Assembly (NCBI RefSeq): GCF_004010195.1
Contig: NC_057757.1
Location: 2,396,276 to 2,460,275, forward strand
Direction of reading: 5' to 3'
DNA length: 64,000 bases
Source of the DNA: Chiloscyllium plagiosum
Lineage: Eukaryota
Shown: piece after piece, positions 6,983 to 57,464 of the stretch
Numbering within the stretch: the stretch's first letter is position 1
Layout: the number at the start of each line of letters is the position of its first letter
Notes under the pieces: generated by a model
Seen by the model: the letters and a program-made list of their open reading frames with translations, nothing else
Databases searched by the model: none
What the model was told of the DNA's origin: nothing
Translations under genes and position numbers: made by a program

Positions 6983-9154
6983 ATAAATTTCCCCTATTGC
7001 GTTCAGGGATGCTTACGTTAAGTGCAGCTCTGATGAAGTGTCATCTAGACTCTAAACATTAGCTTGCTCTTTTTCCATGGATGTTGCCTGACCACTATGA
7101 TCTCCAGCATTTGTTGTTTTCAGTACAGATTCCAGCATCTGCTTTAATTTGTCATACATTGGACATTAAGTGCTTTAACCATGGGAAATGCAGGTTTACA
7201 GGGTTAGGACTTGTTAAGCTGAATAGCCTGCTTCCACACTGCGGGGATTCTATGGATTCTTTTTAGGAACATAACCTCTTTTTGCTTGGCATATATTATA
7301 AGTGAAACCTCAGAGTTTGTTCCCAATACAACAGTTATAAAGTGTGGCCACTTAACTTGATTGAAATTCTCACATTAAATCCCAGCTTTAAGGCTGCTAT
7401 GGTATTAGAAATATCAGAGTCTGGTCTTTGATTTAACTAATCCAACTGCAGCTTAACAATATTGATAGGATTAGCAGGTTGCCTGCTCTTCCTGGAGTGA
7501 GGCAGAGAGGAAGACTCAAATTATGTTTTGTATTCTTTCATAGGATTAGGCATCACACAGAGGTTGGTGTGTGTGTATTGAACGAGCTGCTAGAGGAAGC
7601 GGTGGAGGTTGGTACAATTACAACATTTTAAAAAGCATCTGGATGGCTATATGAATAGGAAGGGTTTAAGGGGGATATGGGCATTGTTTAGGAGGGAGCT
7701 ACAGGAGTGAAGGAACTGTGATTTAGTTCAAAATGAGGATTGTGTCTGACCTGGAGGCAGTGGTGTTCCCACGTATCTGCTGTCCTTGTTATTCTCAGTA
7801 GTAAGGGTCATGAGCTTAGCAGGAGTTGTTAAACGACCCTTGGTCAGTTACTGCAGTGCATCTCATAGATGGCACATATTGCTGCCACTATGCATTGGTG
7901 CAGGAGGGAGTGAGTGAGTGTTTAACATGAGATGCCGATCAAGTGGACTGCTTTGCCCTGGATGGTATTGTTTCTTGAATGTTGTTGGAACTGCACTCAT
8001 TCAGGCAGTATTCCATTCCACCCCTGACTTGTGCTTTGTTAGGCAATCAACTAGCAGCTCTCCAAAAGCTTGTGAATTCAAATAAACCTGTCGGACTATA
8101 ACCTGGTGTCGTGTGACTTCTGAATTTGTCTACCCCAGTCCAACGCCGGAGCCTCCACATGTTGTGCTTTGTTGATGGTGGATAGGCATTGGGAAGACAG
8201 GAGGTAGTAACTCGCTGCAGAATTTCTAGCCTCTGACCAGAGGATGTCGGAGCAGATGTCAGCCATTCAGCCCATCGAGACTGCTCCCCTATTCAACGAG
8301 ATCATGACTGATCTGATCATCCTCAACTCCATTTTCACTGTAACCCTTGATCCTTTACTGATGAAAAGATTCTCTCTCTCTCAGCCTTGAATATACTTCA
8401 CAATTCAGTCTCAGCAGCCTGCTGTGGTGAAGATTTCCTCAGATTCACTTCTCTCTGTCTTTGGGCTGCTGTGGTTTCTCGTGAGGCTCAGTACAAACTG
8501 GAAGAACAGCATCTCATTTTGCACTTGGGGACCCTGCAGCCTTCAGGACTCAATATCGAGCTCAATGAGCACCTTCTTCCATGTCCTTTACCGACTCCCA
8601 TATCCCAGGCCCTGTCATCTCATAGGCTGCTTTCACTACAGCCAACCCATTTTCACCTACATACGGTCCCCATTAGTAGTGTTTCTTCCCTGGCTCACCA
8701 TTATCCATCCTTTTATTTGCCCCTCTCTCTCTGCCTGGGCTCCATCTCCACCTATCACTTACACATTAACTACCACCATCCTCGCTCCTGCTGACAGCAC
8801 GTATACCACCTTTTCCTAGATATTATCAATTCTGAAGGAGGGTTAATAACTCCACTTTCTCTCTAATAACTTCTGTTTTTTGTTCAAGTTTCCAGCATCG
8901 GCAGTCCTTTGATTTTACCCTGGTGAATCTCCTATGCACCCCTTCCAGTACAATCTCATTCTTCCTAAAGTGCTGCGATCAGAACTGCATATCAGACTCC
9001 AGCTCCAACCTAACCGGAGTGTTGTAGAGTTCCAACATAACGCCCCTGTTCTGGATTCAGTCAGCTGTTTCAGATTCGCTCCATCCCCATCCAACACAAC
9101 TTTCAGGGTCATTCCAGCCAGCCCATCTGCATCGTCACAAATCTTTTTGCCAGT

Positions 9155-11470: not shown

Positions 11471-11974
11471 ACACTATCTGCCTCCATGTCAATTTCCCAT
11501 GCTATCCCTGTCATGAGTATCAAGAGATCAAAAGTCACATGACACCAGGTTATAGTCCAACAGGTTTATTCAAAATCACAAGCTTTCAGAGTACCATCCT
11601 CTTGTGAGGCCCCCAGCCAGGGGGAACATCCCATTGAACCCTTTCAGAATTCTTCAACTTCCAATGAAATAATCTCATTATTCTAAACTCGAGATTACAG
11701 GTCTGGTATCCTCATCAGACAGTCCCAATAGCACAGGATCTCTCATTTCATTTCGGAGGGTTAATTTAAGAACTCTGCGTTCTTTCTACAGGAAGGGCAT
11801 CACTGGGAGGGCAAGTATTGATGATGAAACTCAACATAGCACTGGTGGCCTGGAGGCAATCTTCAGCCAGCAGTAAGCCCACAGTCTAAATGACCATGCT
11901 ATTACCTGCACTCCTGTATGCAAAGATAGGGACAATGTACAGCAGGCACCTCAGATCCTTGGAAAAATAGAACA

Positions 11975-15494: not shown

Positions 15495-16095
15495 CAGTGC
15501 GGTGAAGCGAAAAGAATTTTCTGCCTGCAAAACTGACTTTCAGCTTGCTGTTTCAAGCAACTTCAATACACCCCTGCATTCCCTGGCCAACATTTCTGTC
15601 TCAGGCTTGCTGCAGTGCTCCAACAAAGCTCAGCGCAAGCTGGAAGAACAACATCTCATCTTCCACTTGGACCCTGCAGCCTTCAGCACTCAATATTAAA
15701 TTCAATTATTTTAGGGCCTGAGCATCTTCTCCCATGTCTTTACACCAACCCCGACACACCAGGCCTTGTCATCACACAGGGCTGCTACCACAAAACAACC
15801 CATTATCGGGCACTATGGTCCCCATTGGTGACTACCGATTCTCCCAGGCTGACCATTACCCATTCCTTTGCCCAACTGTTGTTCTCTCTATCTCTGGCCT
15901 CCATCTCCATCCACCATTTATTCCTCTTCCTCCTCCTCCATCACCATCCCCATCCTCCACCCACAACCCACCTTCAGCATGTATACTAACTGTTTCCTAG
16001 CTACAAATCAGTTCTGAAGAAGGGTTACTGGGCCTGAAACTTTAAATCTGCTTTTTCTCCACAAATTCCAGCATCCGCAGTTCTTTGGTTTCTTT
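15495..16095 (+). mobile_element. Penelope-like element 3' fragment (GIY-YIG C-terminus and pLTR)
   Basis: AQRKLEEQHLIFHL motif, also seen at about 3575-3620 and 8485-8560 (KLEEQHLILHLGTLQPSGLNIE). It is followed by a CTGAAGA...GAAAC hammerhead-like tail at 16014-16040. Confidence 0.65.
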
Positions 16096-17260
16096 GGAAA
16101 AAAGTCATCTTTGGTCCTGAGGGACTGTCTAAGAAGAAGATCCTCAACCAACATCGCTGGTGATCACCTTGTTGCTGTTTGAGAGTACTTGCAATGATTT
16201 AATTCATTGTCACGTTCCTCCATTGGCTACATTTTAGAAGAGGCTTTCACCACTGACTTGGAACTGACTTCTGAAGAAGGGTCAATGCACCCCCTCTGCT
16301 TTCGCTCCACAGATCCTACTAGTCCTGAGTTTTTCCAGCAATTTCTGCCTTTGTTGAAGATTTGCAGCATCCACAGATTGTTTTTTGACGTGGAACTCTA
16401 TTGCACATTCCTTCGTTGTCACGGGTCAAAGTCCTGGAACACACTCCCCAGTAACTCTGTAGGGTTTTCCTACATAGACTGCAGGTCAAGGTGGCACCTC
16501 AGCACCACATGAAGGCAATTAAAGTTGGGTAATTAATGCCAGAGTGCCAGCAAGATGTACATGCCGTGAACTAGTTTTGAAAGAAGCCTCCCATTCATGT
16601 CTCTTGCCCCAAAGGGTCACAGCAGTGCATGGGCCAAGCATGCTTGAGAGAGTTGCAGCATCAGCGGTTACGCTATCAGACGTTCTGTCCCTTTGTTAAA
16701 TCAGTCAGTGCCTCCTTGGTGGAACCGTTAACTCAGAGTCTTGAAAATTGTGGGTTTAAAGCCCACACTAGAGACTGAACGACAAAATAAAACACGATGA
16801 TGCTCACGACAAAAATTAAGAGAGTGCTGCAACTTTGGAGACACCTTAGTTTGCACAAGATTTCCAGCCAAAGGTCCATCTGTCCTCTTGGGGGAGACAA
16901 AAGGTTTGAAACAATCCAATCTATAATTTAACCTTCATCTAAAACCTGTTCAATTGCCAATAGCAGGATCTTTTTGGGCACAAATACGGCCCACGTTTTC
17001 TACACTGTTACAGGACCAACCATTCATTGGTGCTTTGGAATATGTTTACAAGCACACCATATGTCTGAGCCTTTCCTATGCATCAAAATAAGGACTGACA
17101 TGGTTCAAGATTGCCTACTGCCATCTCCATAGAGCACCGAGAGATGGCTAATCAATGTCAGACTTGGCAGTGTCACGAGAAAGCAAAAAAAACCAAACAA
17201 ACCAAGTGTCAGCATTGACAAGGACGTTCAAATAGTAATTGATATCGCAATCATTAAACA

Positions 17261-20897: not shown

Positions 20898-22423
20898 CTG
20901 GAAAGAAAACACATGTCTTGAGATTATCAAAGAGATACTAATCCGCGAGAAGGCAGAAACAGTGGCAGAAACTCTGGACTAGTAATCCAGAGATATACTG
21001 ACCATTAAACTATTACTAAATGCCATAAAAACCCAACTGCCTCGCTATTGACCTTTAAGGAAGGATATTCCCCCATTCTTACCTGGTCTGGCCTACATGT
21101 GACTCTAGAACCACAGCTGTAGTATGTGGTTGACTTTTAACTGTCCTCAGGGTAATTAGGGATGGACAATAAATGCTGTCAATGCCCATCCCCCATGACT
21201 GAATAAACAAACTAACCTCTGCATAAAATGCTGTGCACCTCAAAAATAAAACAAAGACATAATAAAGTGGCAATGAATGATGTTTTCTCTCCTCTGCGAC
21301 CTGGGATGTGAATCTAGCCCAAGATTTATAGCATAAAAGTCTCCTCCACTGCAAGCTGGAATGGGTTGGGGTCTCAAACTAATTTCTAGTGCAAGCAAGT
21401 CCACAATACTAAGCAATAAGATGCTTTTAAAACAGAGTGCTGGTATGTTACATCCTACCTACAGCAGTGTTGCTGAAGCTTTTCATGTTGCGCTCATTAG
21501 AATAAATGCAATCCAAACAATCAAAGTGTACAACAGGAGCAAAAGGTGCTGATTGATTGGCAAATTGACTCTGGTTGGCCAAGGTATTGCTATTGAATAT
21601 AGAAGCCTCTGGATAATTCATAAAAAGATGCAACTCTTAAATGTCGTCCTTTTGTTGCAGACAGCAGGATCCTTTACATGAATTATGCCTCTTCTAGCCA
21701 GTGCAAATGAATCAAGCTTGAGTGATTATCTTAGCGTGGTTGTTACTGGCACATTCAAGATTGTTCATCAAGAGACGCCCTAATGTGGAGTAGCATCTAA
21801 CAGTTGATGTTTCGTTTTTGATTTTGCAAGGGCAAGCTGGGTAGAATACGGTCTGTACTCTGCCTCCTCCAAACAACCAAGGAATATGCACTTTGATTAT
21901 TGGCCAGTCAGTGGGATGGTTCTGGACATTGCACTCACAATGAATTCCACACATGACAATACTCTGGATGGTAGGCAGAATGTCTTTTTGGAGTGGCATC
22001 CTGGGAATGGAAAATATTATGCCCATCATATTAGCATCATGACACAACTTGCTCAAAGTCTTGCTCAAATTTGGGAAATACTTTGCCACTCTTGGCTAAC
22101 CAGAGTTGGTGACTGAAGCAGATATCATGCAAGATGCAAGAATAGATGAAAAAGTTTCCAAACAGTTGAAGGATCAGTTGTTTATTTTAAATTTTTGATA
22201 GGCAAAGTCTTGTTATGCAAAGATATTGAGGAATTTGGGCCAAAGGCAAGGTATGTGGACTTAGGTCACAAGACAATCATGATCCCATTAAATGGGGGAA
22301 TAGACTCAACAGGCTGAATGGCCTACACGTCTCGATATTCCTGATTGATGGAGTGAAGGGATTTGGGAGCAGGAAGGGCACAGAGTTTACATTACAGCTC
22401 ATTTGGACTGCAGAATCAATGAT

Positions 22424-22638
22424 GAGAGTGCGGTGCTGGAAAAGCATAGCAGGTCAGGCAGCATCCAAGAAGCAGGAGAGTCTATGTTTTGGGCATAAGC
22501 CCTTCATTCATTCCTAATGAAGAGCTTATGCTCAAAACGTCAAATCTCCTGCTCCTCGGATGCTGCCTGATCTGCTGTGCTTTTCCAGCAACACACTCAC
22601 AACTCTGATCTCCAGCATCTGCAGTCCCCCCTTTCTCC
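22424..22638. mobile_element. Palindromic Penelope-derived insertion with decayed hammerhead cores
   Basis: Inverted arms around 22510; imperfect 16-bp TSD CTGCAGAA(T/C)C(A/G)ATGAT at 22408-22423 and 22639-22654. Confidence 0.7.
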
Positions 22639-23543
22639 CTGCAGAACCGATGATCTCAGGATATAGCACCCAATCAGTTGGTTTTACCCCAAATCAGTAA
22701 CAGGCAAATGAACTTAAATAGAGGCAGTCCCCAGGTTGAGAATGGGTTCCATTTGTTCGGGGGAAGACAAAGGACAACACAAACTAGCCACCTGTAAGTA
22801 AAGAAAATGCTTGTGTGTCAGAGGCCTTTTAAATTATATCCCTGTACGGGATCACATTCATAACTCAGGGATCCTCTAACTTCAACCCATTTTGGGCATG
22901 CAGACTAAACTAGCTGAGCAGGGGCATTGTTAATCCAATCACAATCTTATTCTGGGTTACACATGATGTATACTTCACAGGAAGAGGCAATGGTCTGGCG
23001 GTATTATCACTAGGCTATTAATCCAGAGACCCTGGCAATATTCTGGGGACCTGAGTTCATAATCCCACTGTCACAGATGGAATCGAATTCAATATGAACC
23101 TGGAAGAGTTTAAAGATGACCACAAAAACATTGTTGATGAGAATGAACCTATCTGCTTCATGAATGTCCTTTAGGGAAGAAAACTTCCATCCTTACCCTG
23201 TCCAGTCTACATGTGACTCCAAACTTGCAGCTGATGTGCTTGACTCTGAACTACCTTCTGGGCGATCAGAGAGAGTACTAAAATGCTGGTCTCACCAGCA
23301 CATCTACATCCTACACCACAGAAACAGGCCTTTCAACCCCACTCCTCCAGGCTGGTGTTTCCACACCACATGAGTCTCTTCCCACCACTTCTTCATATCA
23401 CCCCAGTAATATAATCTTTTGTGCCTTTCTCCCTCGTGTACTTACTCAGCTTGTCCTAAAATGTATCTTTGCTACTTGCCATCAAGCTACTGAGCAACAG
23501 TGAAGGCTGGCTGTCCTAAGTCTTGCTCAGTCCTCTGGCTAGT

Positions 23544-29134: not shown

Positions 29135-30127
29135 NNNNNNNNNNNNNNNNNNNNNNNNNNNNNNNNNNNNNNNNNNNNNNNNNNNNNNNNNNNNNNNNNN
29201 NNNNNNNNNNNNNNNNNNNNNNNNNNNNNNNNNNNNNNNNNNNNNNNNNNNNNNNNNNNNNNNNNNNNNNNNNNNNNNNNNNNNNNNNNNNNNNNNNNNN
29301 NNNNNNNNNNNNNNNNNNNNNNNNNNNNNNNNNNNNNNNNNNNNNNNNNNNNNNNNNNNNNNNNNNNNNNNNNNNNNNNNNNNNNNNNNNNNNNNNNNNN
29401 NNNNNNNNNNNNNNNNNNNNNNNNNNNNNNNNNNNNNNNNNNNNNNNNNNNNNNNNNNNNNNNNNNNNNNNNNNNNNNNNNNNNNNNNNNNNNNNNNNNN
29501 NNNNNNNNNNNNNNNNNNNNNNNNNNNNNNNNNNNNNNNNNNNNNNNNNNNNNNNNNNNNNNNNNNNNNNNNNNNNNNNNNNNNNNNNNNNNNNNNNNNN
29601 NNNNNNNNNNNNNNNNNNNNNNNNNNNNNNNNNNNNNNNNNNNNNNNNNNNNNNNNNNNNNNNNNNNNNNNNNNNNNNNNNNNNNNNNNNNNNNNNNNNN
29701 NNNNNNNNNNNNNNNNNNNNNNNNNNNNNNNNNNNNNNNNNNNNNNNNNNNNNNNNNNNNNNNNNNNNNNNNNNNNNNNNNNNNNNNNNNNNNNNNNNNN
29801 NNNNNNNNNNNNNNNNNNNNNNNNNNNNNNNNNNNNNNNNNNNNNNNNNNNNNNNNNNNNNNNNNNNNNNNNNNNNNNNNNNNNNNNNNNNNNNNNNNNN
29901 NNNNNNNNNNNNNNNNNNNNNNNNNNNNNNNNNNNNNNNNNNNNNNNNNNNNNNNNNNNNNNNNNNNNNNNNNNNNNNNNNNNNNNNNNNNNNNNNNNNN
30001 NNNNNNNNNNNNNNNNNNNNNNNNNNNNNNNNNNNNNNNNNNNNNNNNNNNNNNNNNNNNNNNNNNNNNNNNNNNNNNNNNNNNNNNNNNNNNNNNNNNN
30101 NNNNNNNNNNNNNNNNNNNNNNNNNNN
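29135..30127. other. Assembly gap (run of N) in CNTROB intron 13
   Basis: Continuous N, flanked by purine-rich low-complexity sequence. Confidence 0.99.
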
Positions 30128-31608: not shown

Positions 31609-33030
31609 CTGGAGACATTAACACAGAGTTGTTAGAACTGTCACCTACCAAAGAATGACTTACAAATAAAAACACATTTGTATTACCTTAACGTAACGTG
31701 GGATAGAGGCATAGCAGAGCTGGAATGACTCCTCTGCACTCCAGTAATAGTGCTTCCGCAGCAAGGCATAGAATTACAATGACCCCAGGAGTTTGACTGT
31801 CAACCAGTGCAACCAAAGTAAGCACCCATTAATGTAACAAACACAGTACAATCCAGCAATGACATTTAACACGTTTAACATCAAACTGACAGTATTGAAA
31901 CAGGCCATTCAGACCATGCTGGTATTTATGCCCTCCTTTAATCCCTTCCCTTCAAAGTTCTTTCTCCCTCTTATTTATTCAACATCCCCTTAAAAGTACC
32001 CAAATGATTCACTGCAACCACTTCCAGTGGCAATGGGTACCCAGAGAACTGGAAAAGAGGTTCCTCCTGAGTTTGTTAACATCTTATTGATGGCCCTTAG
32101 GTCAGGTCGTCTCCACAACAGGAAACATCTTCTCAATGCCTCCTCCATCAAAGCTTTTCATCATTTTAAATTAAGCATCAGCATGAAGATTATGTTAAAT
32201 CTGTATAAAACACTGGTGCAGCCTTGGCTGGAGTAACTGTCTCCTTGTGGGCACGACAATTTAGAAAGGATTACACTTGAGGAATTCTTCCTTGTGGTTA
32301 CCTCTGACTTCCTAATCCAAATGAAGATGAAAGTCACTGATGATTAATATACTGCCTTTTTACAAGGCTTCATTATCTCCTGATTTATTCTCTGTCCTGC
32401 CAAGTACTACTACTTGGGGTCCTTTAACCTCGTCCTGACAGTGTGCTTTCGTCCCTTTGTTATTTCTGACCTCCATTAACATGGAATCTATAGTTTCTGG
32501 TCAAAGATGTTTTTTGCTGTTGCCTCCATACCTCCGAACCACCACCCTTTCCCTCCTGCCTGTGCTTTCAAAAAGTCACATACCTCTGAATATTTAGTTA
32601 CCAGCTTTGATCTCCTTGTAACCATGTCTCTGTAATGGCTATAAGGTCATATCCATTCACCTTCATTTGTAGCATCAATTCATTTATTTTATTCCAAGTC
32701 CAATGCAATGGAAAACATGCGGGTAGGACAAGCTGGAAGTCCCCACAACTCAAACATCCACACCCAAGTGGCCTGCAGCAAGTGATTAGGAAGGCAAATG
32801 GGAGGTTGGTATTTGCTGCAAGGGGAATCGAGTTAAAAAGTAGCAAAGTATTGCTGCAGCTCTACATGGAGCTAGTGCGACCACATCTGGGAGTACAGAG
32901 TTCTGGTCTCTTACTGAAGGAAAGATATAACTGCACGAGTAGCTGGTCAGAGAATGTTCACTTGACTGAGTCTGGAGATGAAGGGGTTTACTTTATGACA
33001 AAAGATCAAGCAGTTTGGATCTTTACTCAG

Positions 33031-33219
33031 GAGAAAGTGAGGACTGCAGATGCAGGAGATCAGAGTCAAGAGTGTGGTGCTGGAAAAGAACAGGTCAGGC
33101 AACATCCGAGGAGCAGGGCATTTGATGTTTCGGGCACAAGCCCTTTATCAATGGGATTCCTGATGAAGGGCTAATGCCCGAAATGTCGATTCTCCTGCTC
33201 CTAGGATACTGCCTGACCT
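33031..33219. mobile_element. Palindromic Penelope-derived insertion carrying a hammerhead motif; 14-bp TSD
   Basis: Inverted arms around about 33153; GGATCTTTA(C/T)TCAG at 33017-33030 and 33220-33233; interrupts a CR1. Confidence 0.75.
33153..33194 (+). ncRNA. Minimal type I hammerhead ribozyme motif; activity untested
   Basis: CUGAUGA (33160-66), A, GGGC-UAAU-GCCC stem II, GAAA (33180-83), UGUC; stem I GGGAUUC/GAUUCUC pairs at 6 of 7 positions. Confidence 0.6.
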
Positions 33220-33329
33220 GGATCTTTATTCAGTAGTGTTTAGAAGAATGGGAGGTGACCTTATTGAAATAGACAAGGTTCTGAGCAGGCTTGATAGGGA
33301 AAGCACTGAAAGGATAGCAGGGATGTTAA

Positions 33330-34580: not shown

Positions 34581-35004
34581 CTACAGCCCGTCATGCAAGA
34601 GAGGAAGACTTGCAATTAGACAGCACCCGTCAATGCGATGCCTCCCAAAGTAACTTACAGCCAATGGCGTACTTCATAAAAAGTGCAGTCACCATTATGA
34701 GGCAAAAAATGCAACAGATAAACTCTGTCGAGCAAGAACGGGATTGCGATCAAAATTTACTATTGACCATGATCAAGAGATAATCGTCAGCTGCAGGACG
34801 CTGGGGCAATCTTCACCGCTTTCTGTTGTAACAGTGGTCCTATGTCAAACTGAGAGGTCTCTGTCTATTGTCCCGTTTCAAAGGCAGCACCTCAAAGGGT
34901 GCAGCTCTCCTTGGTACTGCTCTGGGAAGCTTGGCCTGCTCGAGTATCTAGGTGGGGAGCTGTGTAGGCAAATAAAGTACAAACATAGGATTTCAGAGAG
35001 CTAA

Positions 35005-35191
35005 CACAGAAATTGCTGGAAAGGCTCAGCAGGTCTGGCAGCTTCTGTGGAAAGAAATCAGATTCAAGGTTTTGGACCAAAAACATTATCTCTGGTTTCT
35101 CTCCACAAATGCTGCCAGACATGCTGAGCTGTTCCAGCGATTTGTATTTTTGTTTCTGATTTACAGCATCCGCACTTCTTTTGGTTTTATA
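35005..35191. mobile_element. Palindromic Penelope-derived insertion, third family, centre deleted
   Basis: Inverted arms; TSD TCAGAGAGCTAA at 34993-35004 and 35192-35203. Confidence 0.7.
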
Positions 35192-42043: not shown

Positions 42044-43481
42044 CTATGGGGGAGGCAGTGGAGGAGGGGAAGGGGAAGAAACAAGGAGAAAAGGTCAGAG
42101 TGGGGCAGGGGCACCAAACGTCGGTGGGGAAGACCAGAAAAATCAAGTCATCGTTACATTTCTGTTCGTAGTGCATTGTAAATAAGTCATCGCCACTTCA
42201 CTGAAGACCAAATATACTGAAATGTGAAACAAAAATTCTTAGAGGGCTTTATTGCATGGATGTTGATCTGGTTGGAATTTGAAAGGGGAACTCAATCTTA
42301 GGATAAGGGGCCTCAGTCTTTTAGAACTATGATGAGGAGAAATTCTCTCAGAAGTTTATGATTCTTAGCAATTCTCTACCTCAAACAGCCATGGTTGATC
42401 AATCATTTGTTGAGAATATTCAAGATCCAGTTCAGTAGATTTCTATGTTCTAAGATGGTTAAGGAGTACAGGAATAGGAGAGGACTGTGGCACTGAGATG
42501 GAAGATCAGCTATGGCCTGGTTGAATGGGACTGTAAGTTTGAACAGCTGAAAGGTCCCCTCCTGCTCCTATGTTTTATCTTCCCTTATGTCCATTCTTAC
42601 TATCTCTCACCTCTTACCCTGCTCTTTTGTATTCACTTCTGAGTGAGAAGGTCACAAGCTTAAGACCATCTCCAGAAATGTGCACACATACTCCAGACAG
42701 ACATTCTCAGAGCAGACTAGACCTTGGTTTAATAGATCACCTGAGAGACGATACCTCTGGCAGCACAACACTCCCTCAGTATTGGAACAGACATGTTAGC
42801 CAACACTATTTTTTCATGTCTCTGGTGTGGGGCTCAAAAGAGAGGTGTTCATGGGGCTAAATTATAATTCAACGCTTTTACTTAAGACTGAAAGAACTGC
42901 AGATGCTGTGTAAAGCAGAAACAAATATAGAAATGCTGGAAAAGCTCAGCAGGTCTGGCAGCATCTATGTCAGACGTGCTGAACTTTTCCAGCAATTTCT
43001 ATATTTACTCAAGTAATATTTCATCTCCCATACAAGTTAACCCCTGACCTTGGACCCAAAAAGCCTTTATTGTGGGCGGCACGGTGGCACAGGGGTCGGT
43101 GTGGACTTGTTGGGCCGAAGGGCCTGTTTCCACACTGTAATCTAATCTAATCATATACCTTGTGCTAGTTTTGGAAGTAGGGATTCTAGTAACAGTCTTC
43201 TTCACAATTACTCCCATTTAAACGTTATAAAACCAAGGCAGCTGTTTCGTGAGTGTGTTCAGGACCATGGATAGCGACCAGCGCCAATCTCGTTTCCAGC
43301 ACTTCCAAAGACCCGGCATGGATTTCAGTCCCTCAACATTGTTACTCGTGTAAAAGCCAATTTCCTATTGTAAAAGGATTTGTTCTCAAACACCCAATTT
43401 TTAATTCAGTACATACAGTTCACAGTAATGGTATTACTCTCTAAAGTTGGTATCAAGCCGGGAATGTTTATTTTTCCTTAC

Positions 43482-46551: not shown

Positions 46552-47691
46552 CTGTCCGTGGAGGGGAAAAGAGACAAATGCAAAACAAAACCACAGGAGC
46601 AAATTTGTTTTCCAGCAAAGAGATAAATAGTTTTAAGAATCCATTTTGTTTCTCCCACCAGAATATTAAACCAGTTCCACTTGATCCTCCTAAGTGTAAG
46701 TCATACAACACAAAAACAGACCCCTCAATCCGAGCTGACCATGATCCCCCCCCCAAACTAGTCCCACCTGCCTGTTCCTGGCCCATATCTCTCCAAATCT
46801 TTCCAATTCATGTACTTATCCAAATGACTTTTAAACATTGTAACTGTACACACATCCACCACTTCCACAGGAAGTTCATTACACATACAAACAACTCTCT
46901 ATGTTAAGAAAAATGCCTCTCGTCTTTTTTAGACAAAAATAGAGATCACTGGAAAACCTCAACAGGTCTGGCAGCATCTGTGAATAGAAATCAGAGTTTT
47001 CTAAGGTCTGAGGAAGGATCACTCGATCTGAAACATTAACTCTGATTTCTCGCCACAGGTGTTGCTGAGCTTTACCAACAATTTTTATTTTTGTTTCTGA
47101 TTTACAACATCTGGAATTCTTTCAGTTTTATTCTGTTTTTTTTTTAAAGTCTTTCTGCTCACTCAGTTTCACTCCACTGCCATCTCCCCGAAATCCCACA
47201 CCTTTTTCGAATAACAAACCAATTCTGTTTTAAATTGCTCAGTTGAATCTGCCTCCATCACATTCTCAAACAGTGCACTCCGGATCCTAACCACTCACTG
47301 TTTTAAAACACAAGTTTGTGTCTCTCTTGATGCTTCTTTTGCCAATAACCACAATTTGTGTCTTTTCATTCTTGAGCCTTTGTCCAGTGGGGACAGTTTC
47401 TCCCCATCCAATCTGTGCAGACCCCTGGTGATTTTGAGTACCTTAATCAAATCTCCTCCCGTCCCTTATCTTCTTCAAGGGAAACTGTCCCAACTTCCCA
47501 AATCTGTTCATGTCACTGCAGTCTCTCATCCTACGAATCATTTTCGTGAATCTTTTCTGCACACTCTCTGACACCTTCATAGCCAGTCCTTCATTAGGAG
47601 ACAGTCTCTTGTGCCCTATGATACTGCCCACTTCAACTATCCCTCGTGGTTACAGAGAGGCTGCTGAACTTCAAAACCGTTCACCTTTTAC

Positions 47692-47808: not shown

Positions 47809-50087
47809 CTGTAGTTGGACGAAGCAAGAAATTAGACGTCAATCACAGCTCCACAACTGAACAATTAATGCCTGTATAATTCTGAGTGTTAGAAGGGCAG
47901 AGTCGAAAGGATAGACTGAACCATAGACAGGCCCATAGAAACAGAGGCTTCAGAATAAGAATGTTATGGTTTTTTTTAAAGAAATCAGCATTCATAAAAC
48001 TAACATGAATTTCTTTCTGTCGCTTTTTTTTATAAACCTAGTGGAGGAATAAGCTTAGGGGAAAGTGAAGACTGCAGATGCTGGAGATTAGAGTTGAGTG
48101 CGTGGTGCTGGAAAAACACAGCAGATCAGGCAGCATCCGAGCTTAGGGGGTCTTGTGCCAGAGTAGGCAGCTTCCTTACCTCCGAGTTAGAAGCATCTGA
48201 TACAAGTCCAACCCAATGGCCTAAAGACTAAGGAAGGTGAGTTCAAAGTGCAGGCTTGATTATCAACTTGCAAATCCTTCCACCCATGAAAGGCGCAGAG
48301 AGCAGGACAGATTTCTCATCATCCATGCTTGATGTTGAGTGCCCCCTCCTCATGCTATAAGCTCTGAATTCAGGCTAGCAATATATTCCGGAACAAAATC
48401 AACTACAAAATGCAGACATAAGCATGCGCCTTGCCTGCCTCGTATGTCCCTAAATGCATGAATTTTTCAAGTCTAAAGAAGGATAAGGAAAAGGCACCAC
48501 ATTGGCCAGAATATCAAGGTGTTTTTCCTGTGGAGTCACATGGTCAAATTCACCCAGCTGATTCCTAGGAGGAAAGGGGTTTGTCTTGCAAGGCAAAGCT
48601 CAGCAGGTTATGCCGGTAACTCAACGGACTTTAAGATAATCAAAAGTGATCTTATTCAAGCAAATAGGTTTCTGAAGGGGCTTGTCATGATAATGAAAAG
48701 ATGATGTTTCTCCTCATCAACTTTGTCAAGAGTGAGGGGAGAGAGGCAGGAAAGTGAGTTTAAGGTCGCATCCAATCAGTCATTGAATGGCAGAGCAAGC
48801 ATGAGATGAATGGCCTCTTCCTGCTCCTATTTCTTAGAAAAGAATGTCAGCCTTCAAAAAGGAAACACAAAAGTTGTTAGAGACAAATGTATTAAGATGC
48901 CCAATTTGCCTTTTATCTTCACAAGGTGTTTAGATCCTTTCTAGAGATGTACATATTCAAAAAAAAAACCTGTCACTTCAGCAAGACTGGATGGAATTTA
49001 TTTACCTGAAAGCACTCTTGTCATAATCAACCTTCCAGAGATATCCCAGTGAGAAAGGAGGATTCTAGGAAGGGGACAAGCCAACTGTAATTAACCCGGC
49101 AGGTTAAGGATAGCATGAAATTGAAAGAAGAGAAACATACAATATGTCAATATTGTGGTAAGCCAGAGGACTGGGCAGGTTATAAAACCAACAAAAATGA
49201 CCCAGCCAATGATAAAGAGGGAGAAAATAAATTTTGAGGGTAAACTTGCAAGTAATATCAAGATGAACAGAAAAAAAAAGCTTCTTTAAATATATAAAAG
49301 AGGAAGGCCAAACCAAACATAGCCCCTTTAGAGAATGAGTCTGGGAAAGTAATAATGGGAAACCACGAAATGGCAGAGAACTTGAATAAATATTTTACAT
49401 TGGCCTTCATAGTAGAAGACACTAATAGTGTTCCAGAAATACTAAATAATAGAGGTAAAAAGGAGGGACAAAATAAATAGGTTAACCATCATTAGAAAAA
49501 AGTACAAGGGAAAGGGCTAAGACCAACAAGTCCGCTGGACCTGATGGAACGCGTACTAGGATCTCAAATGAAATTTAGAATTAGTTTTATTGTCACATGA
49601 ACTCACGAATACCAGTAAAAAGTTTACAACTCGCCACTTATAGCACCATCTTAGGGACAAAGGTATCTAGGTACACATTCTTCAGGAAAAAAAATTTAAA
49701 AATGAAAAATGAAGAAGTAGCTATAGAAATAGTAGTAATCTTCCAAGAATCCTTGAATTCTGGAAAAATGCAAGAGGAGTAGAAAACTACAAATGTAACA
49801 TATTTATTCTAAAAGGGATGGGGACAAAAAAGAAACAGGTAATTATTCATCAGTTAGTTTAACATCGGTTATTGAGAAAATGTTGCAAAAACCGAACTCC
49901 CATGCTTAGTGGGAATGCACAGGAATAAGTTTCTGTGAGACAGTTGGCAGGCAGTAATCGATGCAAGGAGTAAAAGATGAAGTGTTTTCAAGAACTTAAT
50001 GGATTGCTTCTTCTTAAACCTCCCGAAGTTAAGTCATGAATCCTCTTTAAGCATCGCGAGACAGCAAGAACATGTAACCCATCTGAA

Positions 50088-50610: not shown

Positions 50611-52144
50611 CCAGGGGAGTTTGCTTTTTTATATTTGACAGGTCAGAAAAAGGTCAGATATATCTGATTTGATGAGGCAGCACAAATCAAACAGAACTGA
50701 TTTTGTATTAGTTTTTGTGAGGTCACACATTCCCTCACCATGCTATTCGGAGGGAATAAAGTTTAAGATCGGGTCAGCCACACATGTAGCTGGGGGAGTG
50801 CTCTCCAGGTTTTATCAGTGATGTAACCTCCCTGTGATACTCAGACTAAGGCCACATGAACCTAGGGCCACCTAGGGTTCACCAGAGGTTTTGTGACAGA
50901 AGCTGACCCCAAAAAGCTGCTTTTGGGTTGACAGCAAGTATCAAGGAGACAGGATCAGCACCTGCTAAGGGGATTAGAGGGGTGTTTGGCTTTTTAATAC
51001 AACCAGCCAGCAAGTGAGGGAGCCAGGGCCCCAAGCTGCTTAATACCAATACAAGCTCCTTCTAGGCAGCTCACAAATAACCAGTGAGGTCAATAGAGCA
51101 GAGAAACACTGCAACACGTGGAAACATCCTCAATTCCACACTGACTAGGATCTCGTCAGAGTATGAGCACTATACTTGTCGGAGCATGAACCTGCGGCTG
51201 ACAGAGATCAGAGGAAGACACAGGGCCAAAGCCTTTGCAATTTACTTCAAAATGAAATGCAGAGCTTTTCAAATTCCTGTTCCACTCTGATTTTAAAATA
51301 CTCCCTTGGATGCCTCATACAGCCTGGCTCTTTACAGCTTTATCACCCAAGTAGTCACAGAAACTCCGATTTAAACATACCACCAAATGCCATATCAAAT
51401 CAGCCCGAGACTGCTCTTGATTTGATCCCCAGGGCATTTTGCAGACTTGACAAAAAATCAATCTCAGCCCCCAAACTATGATCACGCGTACAAGAGTCCT
51501 CCACACACAGCAGATATCTTAAAGGCACATCGCTAATTTTAAACCCTCCACCCATAGATCCACGCCATCAGTTGTCTCATCATATCCTCACTAAAGACAT
51601 CCTCTAAGCTGACATCTTTCAGTCAGGCTTTTGCTAATATTCCACACAGCTCAGGGACAGGCTCTATTTGCGGAGGCTTAGGACATTTCACTCCTCAAAG
51701 CAAGACACTATAGAGATGCATCTGGTTGTGGTCAGGAATTAGGAGGGATTCTGTTGGTGAGTTGCAGAGGAGGCTTTTGAAAAGTCTGAAGAGAAGTGGA
51801 AGAGCTGTTGCTTTCTTTCAAAGACTCATACAGCACAGAAACAGACCATTCCGCCCAGCCAGTCGGTGCCGACCATAATTCCAAACTAAACTAGTCTCAC
51901 CTGAATTATCCTTAATCCAATTGTTTTGCTGAGATCACTTCAGAGAGTAATTAAGAGCCAATTACTTCGCTGTGGGTCTAGCGTCACACATAGGCCAGTC
52001 TGGGTAAGGATGGCAGATTTCATATCTTTAAAGGACTTTGCTGCAAAAGGGGTTTTGCAATAGTTACCATGGTCACCATAACTGAGACCGGCTTTACTGA
52101 TGGAATTTAAATTCCATCAGCTGCTATGGGTTGGATTTGAACCG

Positions 52145-53632
52145 GTGTTGTGGCTGTACAGTATGCTGGTTAGGCCACTTTTGGAATACTACATTCAATT
52201 CTGGTCTCCCTGCAAAAGGAAGAATGTTAAACTTCAAAGGGTTCAGAAAAAATTTACAACGATGTTGCCGGGATTAGAGGGTTTGAGCTATAGGGAGAGG
52301 CTGAATAGACTGAGGCTATTTTCCCTACAGCATCGGAGGCTGAAGGATGACCTCACTTATAAAATGACGTTTATAAAATCATGAGGGACATGATTAGGGT
52401 AAATAGTCAAAGTCTTTGCCTCCAGGTAGGGGACTCCAAAACTAGAGGGCATAGGTTTAAAGTGAGAAGGGAAAGATTTAGAAGGGACCTGAGGGGCAAC
52501 GCTTTCACAGAGAGGGTAACGCATTTATGGAATGAGCTGCCAGAGGTGGTGTTGGTGGCAGGTACAATAACAAATTTAAAAGGCATCTGGATGCGTACAT
52601 GAATAGGAAAAGGTTTAAGAGAAAAATGGGCTAAATGCTGGCAAATGGGACTAGATTAATTTAGGACATCTGGTCGGCATGGAATCTGGAATTGAAAGCT
52701 GGTCTCAGTTATGGAGACCATGGTAACTATTGCAAAACCCCTTTTGCAGCAAAGTCCTTTTAGGATATGAAATCTGCCATCCTTACCCAGACTGGTCTAT
52801 GTGTGACGCTAGACCCACAGCGAAGTAATTGGCTCTTAATTACTCTCTGAAGTGATATCACAAAACAATTGGATGAAGGATAATTCAGGATGGGCGAAAG
52901 CCTTGCTGCTGTGTCCACATATTATAAAAGAGCCTTCGGTTGTAGTACGGAGAGACGTAGGGATTCAGGTATATAATTCTTTGAGGTTTGCATTTCATGT
53001 AGACAGGGTAGTTAAAAGGACATTTACCACGCTTGTCTTCATTGCTCAGCCCTTTGAGTATAGGAGTTGTGATGTCATGTTGAGGTTGTACAGGACGCTG
53101 GTGAGGCCTCTTCTGGAACACTGTGTCCAGTTCTGGTCGCCCTGTTATAGGAAGATTATTATTAAGCTGGAAGGTTTGAGTTGTAAGGAGAAGCTGGATA
53201 GGCTGAGACCTTTTGCACTAGAGTGTAGGAGGTTGAGTAGTGAACTTAGAGGTTTATAAAATCATAAGGTGAACAGCCATGGTCTTTTTTCCTAGGGTAG
53301 TGGGGTCTAAAACTAAAGGGCTTAGGTTTAAGGTGAGAGGAAAAACATTTAAAAGGGACCCAAGGGGCAACTTTTTCACACAGAGGGTGGTCTGTGTCTG
53401 GAATAAGCTGTCAGAGGAGGTGCTGGAGACAGGTACAATTACAACGTCTGGATGGGTACATGAATAGGAAAGGTTTGGAGGGATATGGGCCAGGAGCAGG
53501 CAGGTGAGACTAGCTTAGTTTGGAATTATGGTCGGCATCGACTGGTTGGATAGAAGGGTCTGTTTCTGTGCTGTATGAGTCTTTGAAAGAAAGCAACAGC
53601 TCTTCTTGAGTGCTGTCCAACTCTATGACTAT
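52145..53632 (+). mobile_element. Two CR1 3' fragments (52145-52682; 52935-53582) involved in an inverted duplication
   Basis: LVRPLLEYYIQFWSPC and LYRTLVRPLLEHCVQFWSPCYRK translations. Confidence 0.8.
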
Positions 53633-53880: not shown

Positions 53881-54387
53881 CTGAAACATAGAAAGCAAGT
53901 TAGAATCATAGGACACAACAGCACAGGAAGTAACCGCTCAGCCCCTTGTAACCTTGACATCCCTTTGCACTTCCACTCATCCCATCTGCTCCCTATGGCA
54001 TTGCAAATCCATCTCCCTTTTGAAAGCCAGGGCTGAACCTGCCTCCACCACACGCACAGGTCATATTTCAGATCCTAACCGCTCACTGTATATAAAAAAA
54101 AAGGCTTTTCCTCACACCTTCTGTTGCCAGTTACTTGAACTCTGAGCCATCTCGTTCTCTTCTGTCAATGGGGACAGCTTCTCCCTCTCGACTCTGCCCA
54201 GACTCTCATGATTTTGAAAACCTCTATCAAAAGTCCTCTCAGCTTTCTCTTTTCCAATGATACCAGCCCCAGCTTCTCCAATCTATCCCCATTTCTGAAG
54301 ACCCCCATTCCTGGAACCCATCTCAAAACCTTTACTGCGCCCTCAAAGATTTTCAAATCTTTTCATTCACAATGACTTAAAACACAA

Positions 54388-54614
54388 TGTTAAAAATTAC
54401 ACAACACCAGGTTATAGTCCAACAGACTTACTTGGAAGCACTAACTTTCAGAGTGCTGGTCCTTTATCAGGTGGTTGTGGAGTCCACAATCACCTGATGA
54501 AGGAGCAGCGTTCTGAAATCTAGTGCTTCCAAATAAACCTGTTGGACTATAACCTGGTGCTGTGTGATTTTTAAACTTTGTATACCCCAGTCCAACACTG
54601 GCGTCTCCAAATCA
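54388..54614. mobile_element. Palindromic Penelope-derived insertion, second family, carrying a hammerhead motif; 11-bp TSD
   Basis: Inverted arms of about 90 bp centred near 54481; TTAAAACACAA at 54377-54387 and 54615-54625. Confidence 0.78.
54488..54528 (+). ncRNA. Minimal type I hammerhead ribozyme motif; activity untested
   Basis: CAC, CUGAUGA (54494-500), A, GGAGC-AGC-GUUCU, GAAA (54515-18), UC, UA, GUG. Confidence 0.55.
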
Positions 54615-57464
54615 TTAAAACACAACATCAGTCAAAAGTTTGGAATTTTTAAAAAGCCTTTTTTTTTTATATAAAAGATATCCAGGATTTCATATTGAAT
54701 GAATAAATCTCTAAAAAGCAGCAAAGGAATTAGCCTCCAGAAGGTGCTGGGAAGCAGCAATCTATCGGAATCACTGCTTCCCACGTGGCATTGGTAAGTC
54801 CATTGTCAAGTGTTTTTTTTACTCATGGTTTGACATACTGACCATCTTGTTGGGTCATTTCAGAGGGCAGTTAAGAGTCAACCTCAGAGCTATGGTTCTG
54901 GAGTCACGAGAAGGCCTGACGCAGTTACAGCAAATTACCAGCACCCAACGAACAGTAGTGAACTGAACACTTTGTTTTAAATGATCAATGATAGCTTCAT
55001 GGTCACGATTATTGAAACAAGTATTTCCATTCCAGGCGTATTTAATGAGCTGAATTTAAATTCACAAGATATGCTAATGTATTGGGATTATTAAGCCAGG
55101 CCTCCACATTGCTTGTCTGGTAGTGTAACCAGTCTGTAGCATATCCACGGCAGCAATGAGCATACAACACGGGCAGTTGCTCAACTTGGTCTGGTCCTTT
55201 AAAGTCACTGTATAGTAAACAGTCTCAGGAGGTGCCCAGATCAGTGAGGGCTATTTTAGCCAGACAATTACATTGATTGTCAGCTCCTGATAGCCACCAC
55301 GCCCACCCTGGCTCACAGGGAATAAACCACTTCCCCCAGACATCTGCCCAGTGGTGACCCTATTCTAACATTTTTAACTTCACATGAACCCAGAGCGTAA
55401 GGCGGGGAAGGGATGAGAGCTGAACTCGGGGATGGGTTGGCTTCAGTTGCTGAGGAGGCTAGGAAGTTGGGACTTTAGCCCGTGAACTGGTTTTTGGAAG
55501 GTTTGGGGGCGATGGGGGGAATGGGGGGTTGTTGAGTGGAAAGGGAGAGTTGAACATTGGGTGACAAGAGCAAACTTCCAACAAAATGAAGCAAATGCCT
55601 GACCTTACACAGCCTGCAGAAACAACTGAACTCAAAGAGCAGTCCATTAGGTCATACCCACCAACAAATCAAAGGTAAGTATTTCAAAAGTGGTCTTGCA
55701 GGTGTTAGCACTCAGTCCAAGCTCCATCACAGCTACTGCGGTTTCAGAACGAGCCACCTCAAATTTCTGTTGTGCAACTCTCACCGAGGGTCATGCTGCT
55801 CAGTATATGAAGTCCTGAATTAAACCCAGACAATCCAATTTCATTCATGCTTAGCTCAATGCTGCCACAGCGCACTCAGTGATAGCATTCCACCGTGATG
55901 AAGCTGTATAAGACTTTGTAACGGCCATAGCAGAAGTACTGTGTGCAGTTCCAGTCACTGCACTATGTGATTGCACTGGATGGGGTGCAGAGGAGGCTTA
56001 CTCGGACGTTGCCCTGGGATGGAGCGTTTCAGTGATGAAGAGAGGCTGGATAAGTTTGCTTTGGAGCAGAGAAGGTTGTCGGGGGGGGGGGGAACACGTC
56101 ATAAAATTCCTATAGTGTGATAGCAAGTCAGTCCCACCCCCACCACACCCCATCCCATCCCATCCCACCCCCGAAGAGCAGCCCTTCCAGACCTAACGCC
56201 CTACCCTATTCCTATAACCCTGCATCCTCCATGGCTAACCCACCTACACATCCCTGGATACTAATGGGGTAACTTACTATGGCCAATCCACCCTAATCTA
56301 CACATTTTTGGATCGCGGGAGGAAACATGAGCACCCAGACGAAACTCATGCAGACACGAGGAGAATATGCAGACTCTACACAGGCAGTCACCCAATGATG
56401 GAATCAAACCCTGGTCCCTGTGCTAACCACTGAGTCATCATGCCGCCCTAATAGAGGTTTGTAAAATTTTGAGGGGCATGGACAGTGTGGAAATAAAGTT
56501 GCTACTCCCCTGAACTGAAGAGTCAATAACAAGGGCAGGCATAATCTTAAAGTGAAAGGTGGGAGGGTTAAAGGGGATCTGAGGAAAAGCTTTTTTACCC
56601 AGAGGGTGTTGAGTGTCTGGAATGCGCCTCCAGGGGACAAGATGAGATGGGAAACCTCAATCTTTAAAAAGCAGTTAGATGAGCACTTGGTGCGTCATAA
56701 CATTCAAGGCTGTGGGCCTATTGGGGAAAAGTGGGACTAGTGAAGTTGGTTGTGTATTTTTGGCAGTAGACTTGACTGGTTGAAGGGCCTCTTCCACAAT
56801 GTATATTTCCCTCGATTGATTCGATAGATCATGGGAGTCAACATCCCAGGTCAGAGTACCTCATCCAGGCGGATAATCCCCATTTCAGTCCTGAAGGGGG
56901 CTGGATAGGGATGGGTGGGTTCAACACTGTCTTGCATTCAGACGTCAAACCAACCAAAGTGCCTTCCTCTGCTGTTCTGGGCAAACGTGAAGAATTCCAG
57001 TGCTCTTTGGAGCATCCCACCTCGACATTCTGGTCAATTGCCATCCCACAACCTGTGACAACTGTGTGCTGCCGCTCGTGGAATCTTGCTCTGCACAAAT
57101 CGATGACAGCAGCGACAGCTCTTTGTAAAGTACAATGTCAGCTGGCAATCTCTTTGCAACATCCTGAGGTTTCAAAAGACCCTTGAGAAAAGCAAATGCT
57201 CCTTGTCTGCAGCATCCAGTGCCCCTGGCTACTATCTTCGTTCCCTTGTCATTCAGTTCAGCTTCTCTTCTCAAAGACCCACCAAGAGGGAATGTGCAAT
57301 CATGGGCATAAACATTCACTAGCCAAAGAGTCTTGGAGAGTAAATTGCATCATTATCCACTCATAATTTGCCCCTCTCCTGGTGTTGAAAAGAATTTATT
57401 CACAAAGCAAACCCTCCAAGTCTAACTGACTGAACCATTTGCTGATTCAAGTCTGCCCACTCAC

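Follow-up and report, generated by a model that had tools for sequence, protein, structure and literature searches.

The palindrome at about 54 kb in the window (the whole 64,000-nt stretch of Chiloscyllium plagiosum DNA that was analysed) raises the question whether it represents a second palindromic family, moving as a palindrome and carrying a functional hammerhead RNA, as had been predicted, or the remnant of an element of another kind. We consider it very probable (about 0.88) that the 238-nt insert arose in a single retrotransposition event from a Penelope-like element (PLE) with an endonuclease, of which it retains the terminal module only. The palindrome appears to be mostly an ordinary fossil, composed of two head-to-head terminal pieces of a very abundant PLE.

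Architecture of the insert and its relatives in the window

The features of the insert and of its relatives are as follows.

8053..8161, plus strand: single 5'-truncated copy of an apparent sister subfamily, with full tail and its own 12-nt duplication (8029-40 / 8162-73), lacking the CTGANGA box
11517..11592, minus strand: decayed, tail-less copy of the apparent sister subfamily, without an intact CTGANGA box
54377..54387, no strand: left copy of the putative TSD; the final 4 nt (54384-87) are shared with the continuation of the element (microhomology)
54389..54482, minus strand: left arm, an inverted, tail-less copy of the terminal module
54439..54473, minus strand: broken hammerhead (G8>A, two stem II mismatches, non-palindromic helix-III segment)
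54483..54614, plus strand: right arm, the terminal module in direct orientation (pLTR truncated at its 5' side, with tail), beginning 11 nt before core C3
54491..54525, plus strand: putative minimal type I hammerhead, both boxes intact, palindrome broken by T54519 (G in 94-95% of the family)
54532..54537, plus strand: AATAAA hexamer, shared by the copies at 8 and 11.5 kb and destroyed in the left arm
54549..54552, plus strand: position of the poly(A) ends of reads from other copies, followed by a G/T-rich, not A-rich, stretch
54575..54614, plus strand: tail of 33-40 nt on one arm only; family depth ends at 54614/15
54615..54625, no strand: right copy of the putative TSD; the right junction also occurs on one genome contig (run X1)

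Inverted arms of about 90 bp and an exact 11-bp TSD had been predicted, and both were recovered. The arms (54390-54481 and 54483-54574) measure 92 nt each, are 87% complementary and leave a 1-nt spacer, and eight of their 12 differences are assigned to the left arm when judged against the majority letters of the family. The RNA fold of the palindrome has a z-score of -19.9, and none of 200 shuffles is equally stable. The direct repeat 54377-54387 / 54615-54625 is exact over 11 nt, and we infer that it is a TSD; two random 21-nt windows shared an exact 11-mer in 9 of 20,000 draws. The tail, whose length varies with the choice of the left junction, is confined to the right arm and runs to 54614, next to the 3' boundary of family depth (54614/15). 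Both arms stop within 2 nt of the same family position and overlap by 1 nt at the centre.

Half copies, expected at about 8060-8160 and 11530-11600, were located at 8053-8160 and 11517-11592. Each is about 80% identical to the 54-kb unit, both keep the helix-III palindrome AGCT, and by sequence they look like a sister subfamily; no duplication surrounds the copy at 11517-11592. A profile search of the window returned no copies beyond those at 54, 8 and 11.5 kb. The claimed lack of likeness to the 33-kb element outside the core likewise held: blastn at word size 7 gave no match there, and 75 of 500 shuffles score as well as the post-core arm does against the 22-kb copy of the 33-kb family. The window holds 9 occurrences of a 14-nt upstream motif against a mean of 7.1, which is no enrichment.

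Short palindrome, exact flanking duplication and lack of an ORF would also suit a MITE, i.e., a non-autonomous DNA transposon with terminal inverted repeats, in which the hammerhead match is incidental. However, the tail makes the arms unequal and keeps them from reaching both termini, so that inverted repeats do not occupy both ends of the insert. The duplications, which also flank half copies, differ in length between sites, and this largely refutes a MITE: they were found at seven of nine window sites tested (11, 16, 13-18, 12, 12-15, 10 and 10 nt), four of them with 1-2 mismatches, and the other two sites show none that is convincing. By family, the 11 nt belong to the 54-kb insert, 12 nt to the sister copy and the five other sites to other hammerhead families. 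The motif itself recurs in two other families and exceeds chance, with three exact descriptor matches in the window against one across 40 shuffled windows, for a descriptor that was composed after the motif had been seen and that overlooked the 33-kb motif, whose stem I has just two pairs adjoining the core. Against the terminal inverted repeats, fixed-length TSD and missing core that the original prediction named as signs of a DNA transposon, we thus find duplications of variable length and a retained core, and a MITE can practically be dismissed.

The hammerhead motif in the two arms

Stem I of the right arm consists of three pairs between CAC (54491-93) and GTG (54523-25) and encloses the box CTGATGA (54494-54500), a bulged A54501, a stem II of five pairs with a 3-nt loop, and GAAA (54515-18). 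UH is T54521/A54522 with A54522 as H17, and this assignment of stems and core places the predicted cut directly after A54522, precisely where it had been expected. The boxes CUGANGA, GAAA and UH are intact in the right arm and broken in the left (G8>A). Stem II of the 54-kb copy contains two G-U pairs, versus G-C in the family majority, and the helix-III segment is non-palindromic in both arms (ATCT right, AGTT left). The tail of the right arm, the G8>A of the left arm and the loss of the helix-III palindrome from both had gone unnoticed in the original prediction.

The bare core pattern matches 14 times in the window against a shuffle mean of 8.3, a value reached by 4 of 100 shuffles and alone not significant. 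A parse of the motifs by hand took the place of a MAFFT alignment with mis-registered stem II, and the bulged A at 9/10.1 is present in all seven motifs so parsed. The count of pairs covered seven motifs from three families with the MAFFT-shifted stem II, and a slide of -1 scored equally well. What stands of the proposed covariation, stems that differ around one core, is a fold shared by two families, but not covariation in the statistical sense. An Rfam search (E <= 5) returned no hammerhead family, and its eight weak matches to hairpin or other families lie below the gathering score; with respect to a minimal motif this outcome is neutral. Read ends do not accumulate at the predicted cut site in one 3'-tag RNA library, a type that could hardly show such a pile.

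When the whole palindrome is folded, the pair probabilities of the hammerhead are 0.00; the RNA of the right arm alone, ending at the poly(A) position, is predicted to fold the hammerhead stems with P > 0.9. The 54-kb copy is probably dead, as the palindrome of its right arm is broken, its left arm carries G8A and the modelled long hairpin would abolish the fold. Decay and the folding of the whole transcript as one long hairpin therefore make this copy most likely inert, and since it is probably non-functional, a cleavage assay on it would probably turn out negative for trivial reasons.

The family majority differs from the 54-kb copy at several positions of the motif. G at 54519 restores the dimer palindrome in 94-95% of depth (three runs), C stands at 54511 in 84-90%, and C at 54514 in 50-64% (the G10.1-C11.1 pair; G-U in the 54-kb copy). 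Among the variants listed, substitutions fall into loop II, H17 and CpG sites, and none at 54494-54500 or 54516-18. The earlier description as a functional RNA may be true of the family majority, though it probably does not apply to the 54-kb copy.

Origin of the head-to-head arms

The family comprises at least tens of thousands of copies, with 47,650 and 40,786 matching contigs in two genome runs, and may be already catalogued in Repbase or Dfam. Scans of metagenome and viral collections gave no match to its DNA; matches to an 18-mer (4 + 4) in two further scans extend over just 18-27 nt and were dropped as chance.

The insertion shows the traits of a PLE: an inverted 5'-truncated terminal repeat, a tail of the 30-40 bp class, a TSD of variable length and a pLTR hammerhead. 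An inverted 5'-truncated copy with a 30-40 bp tail is the arrangement described for PLEs (PMC8557442, PMC3846280), variable TSD length is expected of PLE TPRT (PMC8557442), and hammerhead architecture in PLEs has been described already (PMC4209133, PMC8557442, PMC3846280). The combination of inverted 5'-truncated copy, tail and variable duplication is thus the published PLE signature, and neither a separate mobile palindrome nor a MITE is therefore called for.

We nevertheless considered that the unit is a non-autonomous, retrozyme-like mini-element, transcribed and mobile as a fixed 238-nt hairpin with a PLE protein acting in trans. Its very high copy number and the lack of a linked ORF would suit such an element, non-autonomous PLE derivatives are known (bioRxiv 10.64898/2026.07.22.740005; PMC8557442), and arms often start just before the core (358, 354 and 85 contigs have loose ends ahead of 54492), which could mark a short template RNA. 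A fixed hairpin is, however, at odds with inversion points that vary among copies (the strand switches in 10 of 15 joints among those listed, at differing places), with family sequence that extends upstream beyond the arm in other copies, and with the single-arm 8-kb copy, which has a duplication of its own. Moreover, the hammerhead is predicted to be unable to form in the hairpin transcript, and the available text of bioRxiv 10.64898/2026.07.22.740005 presents animal retrozymes as head-to-tail tandems, not head-to-head. We therefore judge a mobile hairpin to be improbable. Of the predicted second palindromic family there remains a hammerhead-bearing retrotransposed unit of PLE type, but, given the duplication of the 8-kb copy and the differing inversion points, not one that moves as a palindrome.

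Under the retrotransposition reading, which is modelled on the in vitro behaviour of the anole PLE (PMC11167929), an RT/GIY-YIG protein would introduce two nicks into an A/T-rich target, one in each strand and offset by 11 nt. One nick would prime cDNA at an outer start site (the tail end) and the other at an inner start site, perhaps aided by the 4-nt microhomology; both cDNAs would halt some 11-13 nt ahead of the hammerhead core and then join head to head. The two-primer step is taken from another PLE clade (anole). The hammerhead would be part of the source-element RNA, cutting only as a dimer via the AGCU palindrome or with the help of a protein. Loose ends pile up at 54574 in 2,548 and 2,931 contigs, partly as an artefact of a 1-nt insertion which the 54-kb copy carries, and the pile is for this reason not by itself proof of an inner start site.

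Alternatively, with the PLE origin kept, the mirror arm could have arisen by fold-back (self-priming or repair) instead of priming at the second nick. Fold-back was proposed for head-to-head junctions of PLEs, and Arkhipova et al. prefer self-priming on an antisense template (PMC3846280). The arm ends at nearly the same family position with their 1-nt central overlap would agree with it, as would the T at 54514 that both arms share where the family is split. On the other hand, the short arm has its outer end 33-40 nt short of the 3' end, a position to be expected from two RT start sites, between which the PLE tail is situated (PMC11167929); this outer end has a 4-nt microhomology to the target, and the anole PLE protein can extend both strands. 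We regard fold-back as possible, though not as the probable course. It touches one step only and overlaps with the retrotransposition reading.

Three fragments in the window match proteins with PLE RT and GIY-YIG motifs, and such sequence matches indicate that PLE machinery exists in the Chiloscyllium plagiosum genome. No RT/GIY-YIG ORF joined to the terminus of the stub was found, and the EN fragments of the window adjoin a different hammerhead family (16 kb). Two read-through protein searches with the short sense frame of the module returned nothing relevant, one giving no match and the other two unrelated repeat proteins, which were rejected; a single EN fragment as query had no matches, and Pfam (three EN fragments) and the Atlas gave none and no usable match, respectively.

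Poly(A) ends behind the motif and comparison with known systems

In one run (X21), 1,573 of 3,436 RNA reads (656 + 917) end in poly(A) 13 nt after AATAAA and 28 nt past the predicted cut. These reads derive from other family copies, in which a functional poly(A) site seems to follow closely behind the ribozyme motif, with the AATAAA acting as its signal. ATTAAA is the commonest family variant of the hexamer (26-46% of depth). We found no description of a poly(A) site just behind a PLE hammerhead in the literature available to us, including the accessible part of PMC2377424.

It is hardly credible that the 54-kb copy itself serves the gene whose intron holds it, whether as a working cis-regulatory ribozyme or as a poly(A) site. 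Its right arm retains both core boxes and AATAAA, and the isolated RNA up to the poly(A) position is modelled to fold the hammerhead stems. The host gene, however, appears to lie on the minus strand, where the arm carries G8>A and lacks the hexamer; only 23 of the 3,436 reads are at least 99% like this copy, with a depth of 0 on its unique right flank, the palindrome required for dimers is disrupted and the fold is governed by the long hairpin. The host gene has no Pfam match, and its Atlas matches are to generic coiled-coil only.

More speculative, and in our view doubtful, is the idea that the terminal module is a coupled 3'-end cassette of dimer-type hammerhead and working poly(A) signal, with disabling of sense copies included. 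If so, the poly(A) tail would be added 28 nt past the cut site, and RNAs ending there would fold the hammerhead, while RNAs reaching the tail (the retrotransposition templates) mostly would not. Dispersed within introns and between genes as at least tens of thousands of stubs, the cassette would then terminate, and perhaps also de-tail, many transcripts of the host, and copies lying in sense orientation to genes would be selectively disabled. Confirmation of the poly(A) site across loci would show where PLE transcripts end, and would open to test the question whether host genes of this lineage obtain 3' ends from a high-copy retroelement. The family is also numerous enough for covariation, hairpin centres and tail lengths to be measured on a large scale, a matter of relevance to the way in which PLEs make inverted copies.

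The 54-kb unit is a further terminal stub of a PLE that carries a min-HHR, a kind described since 2013-2014, and the poly(A) ends behind the hammerhead are what is new in these data. As in insertions of EN+ PLEs (PMC8557442, PMC3846280, PMC11167929), a direct and an adjacent inverted copy are both 5'-truncated, one arm bears an extension of 30-40 bp, the TSD is short and variable, and the target is A/T-rich; in contrast to these, the 54-kb unit is cut to about 130 + 94 nt of terminal module and known from this module alone. PLE min-HHRs (PMC4209133) share the CUGANGA and GAAA boxes, the unpaired base at 9/10.1, a short stem I and the lack of a stable helix III, and they also occur as solo motifs and opposite-strand pairs; their G10.1-C11.1 pair and 4-nt palindrome are found in the majority of the stub family but are lost in the 54-kb copy. 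Stem II has 5 bp and a 3-nt loop here versus 7-8 bp in Schistosoma, and the accessible text of PMC4209133 makes no mention of a poly(A) signal at 10 nt behind the cut.

Non-LTR retrozymes, reported from one chondrichthyan genome, are likewise non-coding, PLE-related and equipped with a type I hammerhead (PMC7229834; bioRxiv 10.64898/2026.07.22.740005), but form head-to-tail tandem repeats, whereas the 54-kb unit is a head-to-head pair with TSD and tail. The hammerhead in the 3' UTR of rodent Clec2 resembles ours in that its cut site precedes a poly(A) signal and cleavage would thus remove the poly(A) end (PMC6765202); the Clec2 motif is canonical, split and host-exapted, whereas the motif described here, known from its sequence, is of the minimal dimer type and resides in a high-copy repeat.

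Structure and origin of the insert

The insert is a palindromic stub, very probably of a Penelope-like element (PLE), and consists of the following parts:

54377-54387: left copy of an 11-nt direct repeat
54389-54482, minus strand: left arm
54483-54614, plus strand: right arm including a one-sided tail
54491-54525, plus strand: type I minimal hammerhead motif (min-HHR)
54532-54537, plus strand: AATAAA hexamer
54615-54625: right copy of the direct repeat

The inverted arms of about 90 bp described in the original prediction are present (54390-54481 against 54483-54574, 92 nt, 87% complementary, 12 arm-to-arm differences), and the RNA fold of the palindrome lies far outside chance (z = -19.9). 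The flanking 11-nt repeat is exact, as had been stated; two random 21-nt windows had an 11-mer in common in 9 of 20,000 draws, and we infer a target-site duplication. Overlooked at first was the tail, by which the right arm extends beyond the left-arm end to 54614. A repeat finder gives it 40 nt, but the left-arm match goes on through two further bases, one mismatch and the final 4 nt of the duplication on that side, so that the tail measures 33-40 nt. The predicted half copies, a sister subfamily, occupy 8053-8160 and 11517-11592 and show about 80% identity; the AGCT palindrome and AATAAA survive in each, but the first core box is lost from both. The insert indeed bears no likeness to the palindromic 33-kb family outside the hammerhead core. 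Members of that other family (22408-22654, 33016-33236 and the half copy 48052-48149) display the same anatomy of inverted arm, tail and duplications of about 10-16 nt, the tail-bearing arm of the 33-kb copy being on the minus strand.

Duplications were sought at nine hammerhead-family insertion sites in the window and found at seven; those at 46.9 and 11.5 kb revealed no convincing one. A reading of the insert as a MITE was rejected, as the duplication lengths differ among these sites.

Duplications at other hammerhead-family sites in the window
22 kb: 16 nt, 2 mismatches
33 kb: 13-18 nt, 1-2 mismatches
8 kb: 12 nt, exact
35 kb: 12 nt, exact, up to 15
48 kb: 10 nt, exact
42.9 kb: 10 nt, 1 mismatch

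Four of 24 public sequencing runs were compared with 54460-54760 at 80% likeness, family records being chosen by likeness to the 54-kb copy. Matching records comprise 47,650 contigs in X1 (organism A), 40,786 in X7 (organism B) and 6,763 in X16, besides 3,436 raw RNA reads in X21. These counts, which are of records and not of copies, point to at least tens of thousands of family copies. Summed X1 depth falls from 332,422 (54603-54613) to 32,358 (54614-54624) and 85 (54625-54635), and 11 of 24 pieces among those listed end at 54614-54617; the 3' end of the family is therefore fixed there. Other copies carry family-like sequence upstream of 54483, which indicates that the arm is the end of a longer element. 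Ten of 15 joints among those listed (1-9 contigs per joint) switch strand, and do so at differing places, so that the hairpin does not form a constant unit and the earlier idea of a palindrome moving as such is not borne out. One X1 contig carries the right junction of the 54-kb copy with zero letter changes and one gap; it is not independent, because X1 may be the source sample.

The insert probably arose by target-primed reverse transcription (TPRT), with a PLE protein acting at two nicks 11 nt apart and two cDNAs starting from an outer and an inner site. Both would have halted 11-13 nt before the hammerhead core and then been joined head-to-head. Fold-back self-priming, discussed in the accessible text of PMC3846280, is a serious competing explanation of the mirror arm. 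After insertion by two-nick TPRT, neutral decay would account for the 4 changes in one arm and 8 in the other relative to the family majority letters.

The hammerhead in the family and in the 54-kb copy

The hammerhead parses as originally noted, with H17 at A54522. A descriptor written after the motif was seen, which requires the two core boxes and no fewer than 3 pairs in stem I and 4 in stem II, matches three times in the window (16014, 47008, 54494) versus once in 40 shuffled windows. The family majority has G at 54519 (94-95%), restoring the AGCU palindrome of helix III, and C at 54511 (84-90%) and 54514 (50-64%), yielding G-C pairs in stem II; it thus carries traits of PLE min-HHRs, which according to the accessible part of PMC4209133 cleave weakly, as dimers. 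Listed variants comprise changes in loop II (54507-54510), a permitted A>T at H17 and changes at G12, which is a CpG site (8-19%); none among them lies at 54494-54500 or 54516-54518, in records chosen by likeness to the 54-kb copy.

Judged by its sequence, the hammerhead of the 54-kb copy itself shows damage in both arms. On the right the palindrome is gone and two pairs are G-U; on the left there are G8>A and two mismatches in stem II. A thermodynamic model that leaves dimers out of account gives each of the eight hammerhead pairs a probability of 0.00 in a whole-insert transcript, 0.06-0.23 in arm plus tail RNA, and above 0.9 in RNA ending at 54551.

Both core boxes are kept in four of the seven motifs parsed in the window, and the palindromic segment in none of these four, by a test ill-suited to the motifs at 16 and 47 kb, whose segments are 5 nt long. 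Covariation between families, as originally proposed, is not established: the families have no common sequence outside the core, and a pair count on a mis-registered seven-row alignment gave a score reached by 8 of 500 shuffles and equalled by the slide -1 control. Position 54491 is apparently T in a subfamily of the 54-kb family, and 54525 is A in some X21 reads (323 and 401 reads); if linked, these would form a compensatory stem I pair.

A poly(A) site behind the hammerhead, and the host gene

X21 is a single-cell poly(A) library from one sample, of which about 2% was read. A-runs follow 54552 in 917 reads and 54549 in 656, together 1,573 of 3,436 (46%); a single cut near 54550 in T and C variants could account for both positions. 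The A-runs lie on the same strand as the hammerhead (plus), 13 nt downstream of AATAAA and 28 nt downstream of H17, and the window sequence behind them is G/T-rich, not A-rich. The commonest hexamer variant in the family (26-46%) is ATTAAA, the second standard poly(A) signal. Between sister subfamilies the stretch from hexamer to G/T-rich block is the best-kept part; no such hexamer occurs in the three stretches checked of the other two hammerhead families. The reads stem from other copies and not the 54-kb locus, since 23 of 3,436 are at least 99% like this copy and depth on its unique flank is 0. They may be inflated by duplicates or come mostly from a small number of loci, although the listing distinguishes three contexts upstream (704, 323 and 152 reads). 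Some A-runs may be templated in the copies that they come from; none was present among the six top loose ends listed for X1 or X7. The literature searched, including the accessible text of PMC2377424 and with most subscription papers outside its scope, does not describe a poly(A) site in a PLE terminal repeat (pLTR), and this silence is weak evidence of novelty. Among the leads that the insert offers, we consider this poly(A) cassette alone to merit follow-up.

Minus-strand open frames end at GT donors at about 62.76, 53.70 and 41.80 kb, which suggests that a minus-strand coiled-coil gene (41801-63417), possibly centrobin-like, harbours the insert in one of its introns. Pfam and Atlas searches did not name the gene, the Atlas matches being chordate coiled-coil. 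In the host-sense arm G8 has become A and the hexamer is destroyed; the hexamer holds 2 of the arm's 8 changes (P about 0.08, a single case and not significant).

Elsewhere in the window, a receptor guanylyl-cyclase-type exon (Pfam ANF_receptor) occupies 4580-5455, with coiled-coil exons upstream of it. This exon gives the window the look of vertebrate DNA, in agreement with the chordate Atlas matches. A 187-nt direct tandem duplication (10885-11258, 99.5% identity) inside a LINE-like repeat is either recent or an assembly artefact. Inverted, near-identical pieces (93-96%) of the LINE-like repeat, 51799-52095 against 52695-52889 and 53501-53605, suggest local inversion or rearrangement. An assembly gap (993 N) spans 29135-30127.

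Partner proteins and comparison with known elements

PLE endonuclease C-termini are encoded by three fragments in the window. In a search of 170 candidates their profile matched 36 proteins at E <= 10, one of them skate-named, a possible sign of shark-like DNA. Several of 15 matched proteins examined have a CxxxCxxC linker, apparent RT motifs and a GIY-YIG-like stretch. The linker was identified following the accessible text of PMC8557442. Pfam gave one sub-threshold GIY-YIG match among seven proteins tested, one of which is 64% identical over 47 aa to the 15.5-kb fragment. As this fragment continues into the 16-kb hammerhead of a third family, PLEs with hammerhead termini exist in the window DNA. 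Searches by family DNA and by read-through protein tied no ORF to the 54-kb family.

Copies of the third hammerhead family in the window
15517-16100
8444-8910
3477-3960
35003-35190
42883-43006
46933-47131
6180-6290

The 5'-truncated copies of this family comprise endonuclease C-termini, then a 3' region, then the hammerhead repeat, behind which a pyrimidine-rich stretch ending in CAG and followed by ATG resembles, by eye, a splice acceptor. The third family and the 22/33-kb family have a 19-nt stretch in common (0 of 500 shuffles).

Penelope elements are reported from the whale shark genome (PMC8455134, accessible text), and the 54-kb family may already be catalogued in Repbase, Dfam or paper supplements. 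Accessible parts of PMC8557442 and PMC3846280 describe PLE insertions as an inverted 5'-truncated copy with a 30-40 bp tail, and in the former the distance between two nicks determines duplication length. In an anole PLE, according to the accessible text of PMC11167929, the protein nicks A/T-rich DNA in both strands and extends each of them; the tail corresponds to the interval from one RT start site to the other; and the hammerhead, which cleaves only with the protein, is not needed for in vitro insertion. The insert is not a retrozyme tandem as characterized in the accessible parts of bioRxiv 10.64898/2026.07.22.740005 and PMC7229834. With endonuclease-bearing (EN+) PLE insertions it shares the inverted truncated copy, the one-sided tail and the varying duplication length. 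Membership of the family in the PLEs would thus rest on insertion anatomy and motif; of five features that mark truncated, min-HHR-bearing insertions of EN+ PLEs, a kind already known, four are present in the insert, the fifth being the parent ORF.
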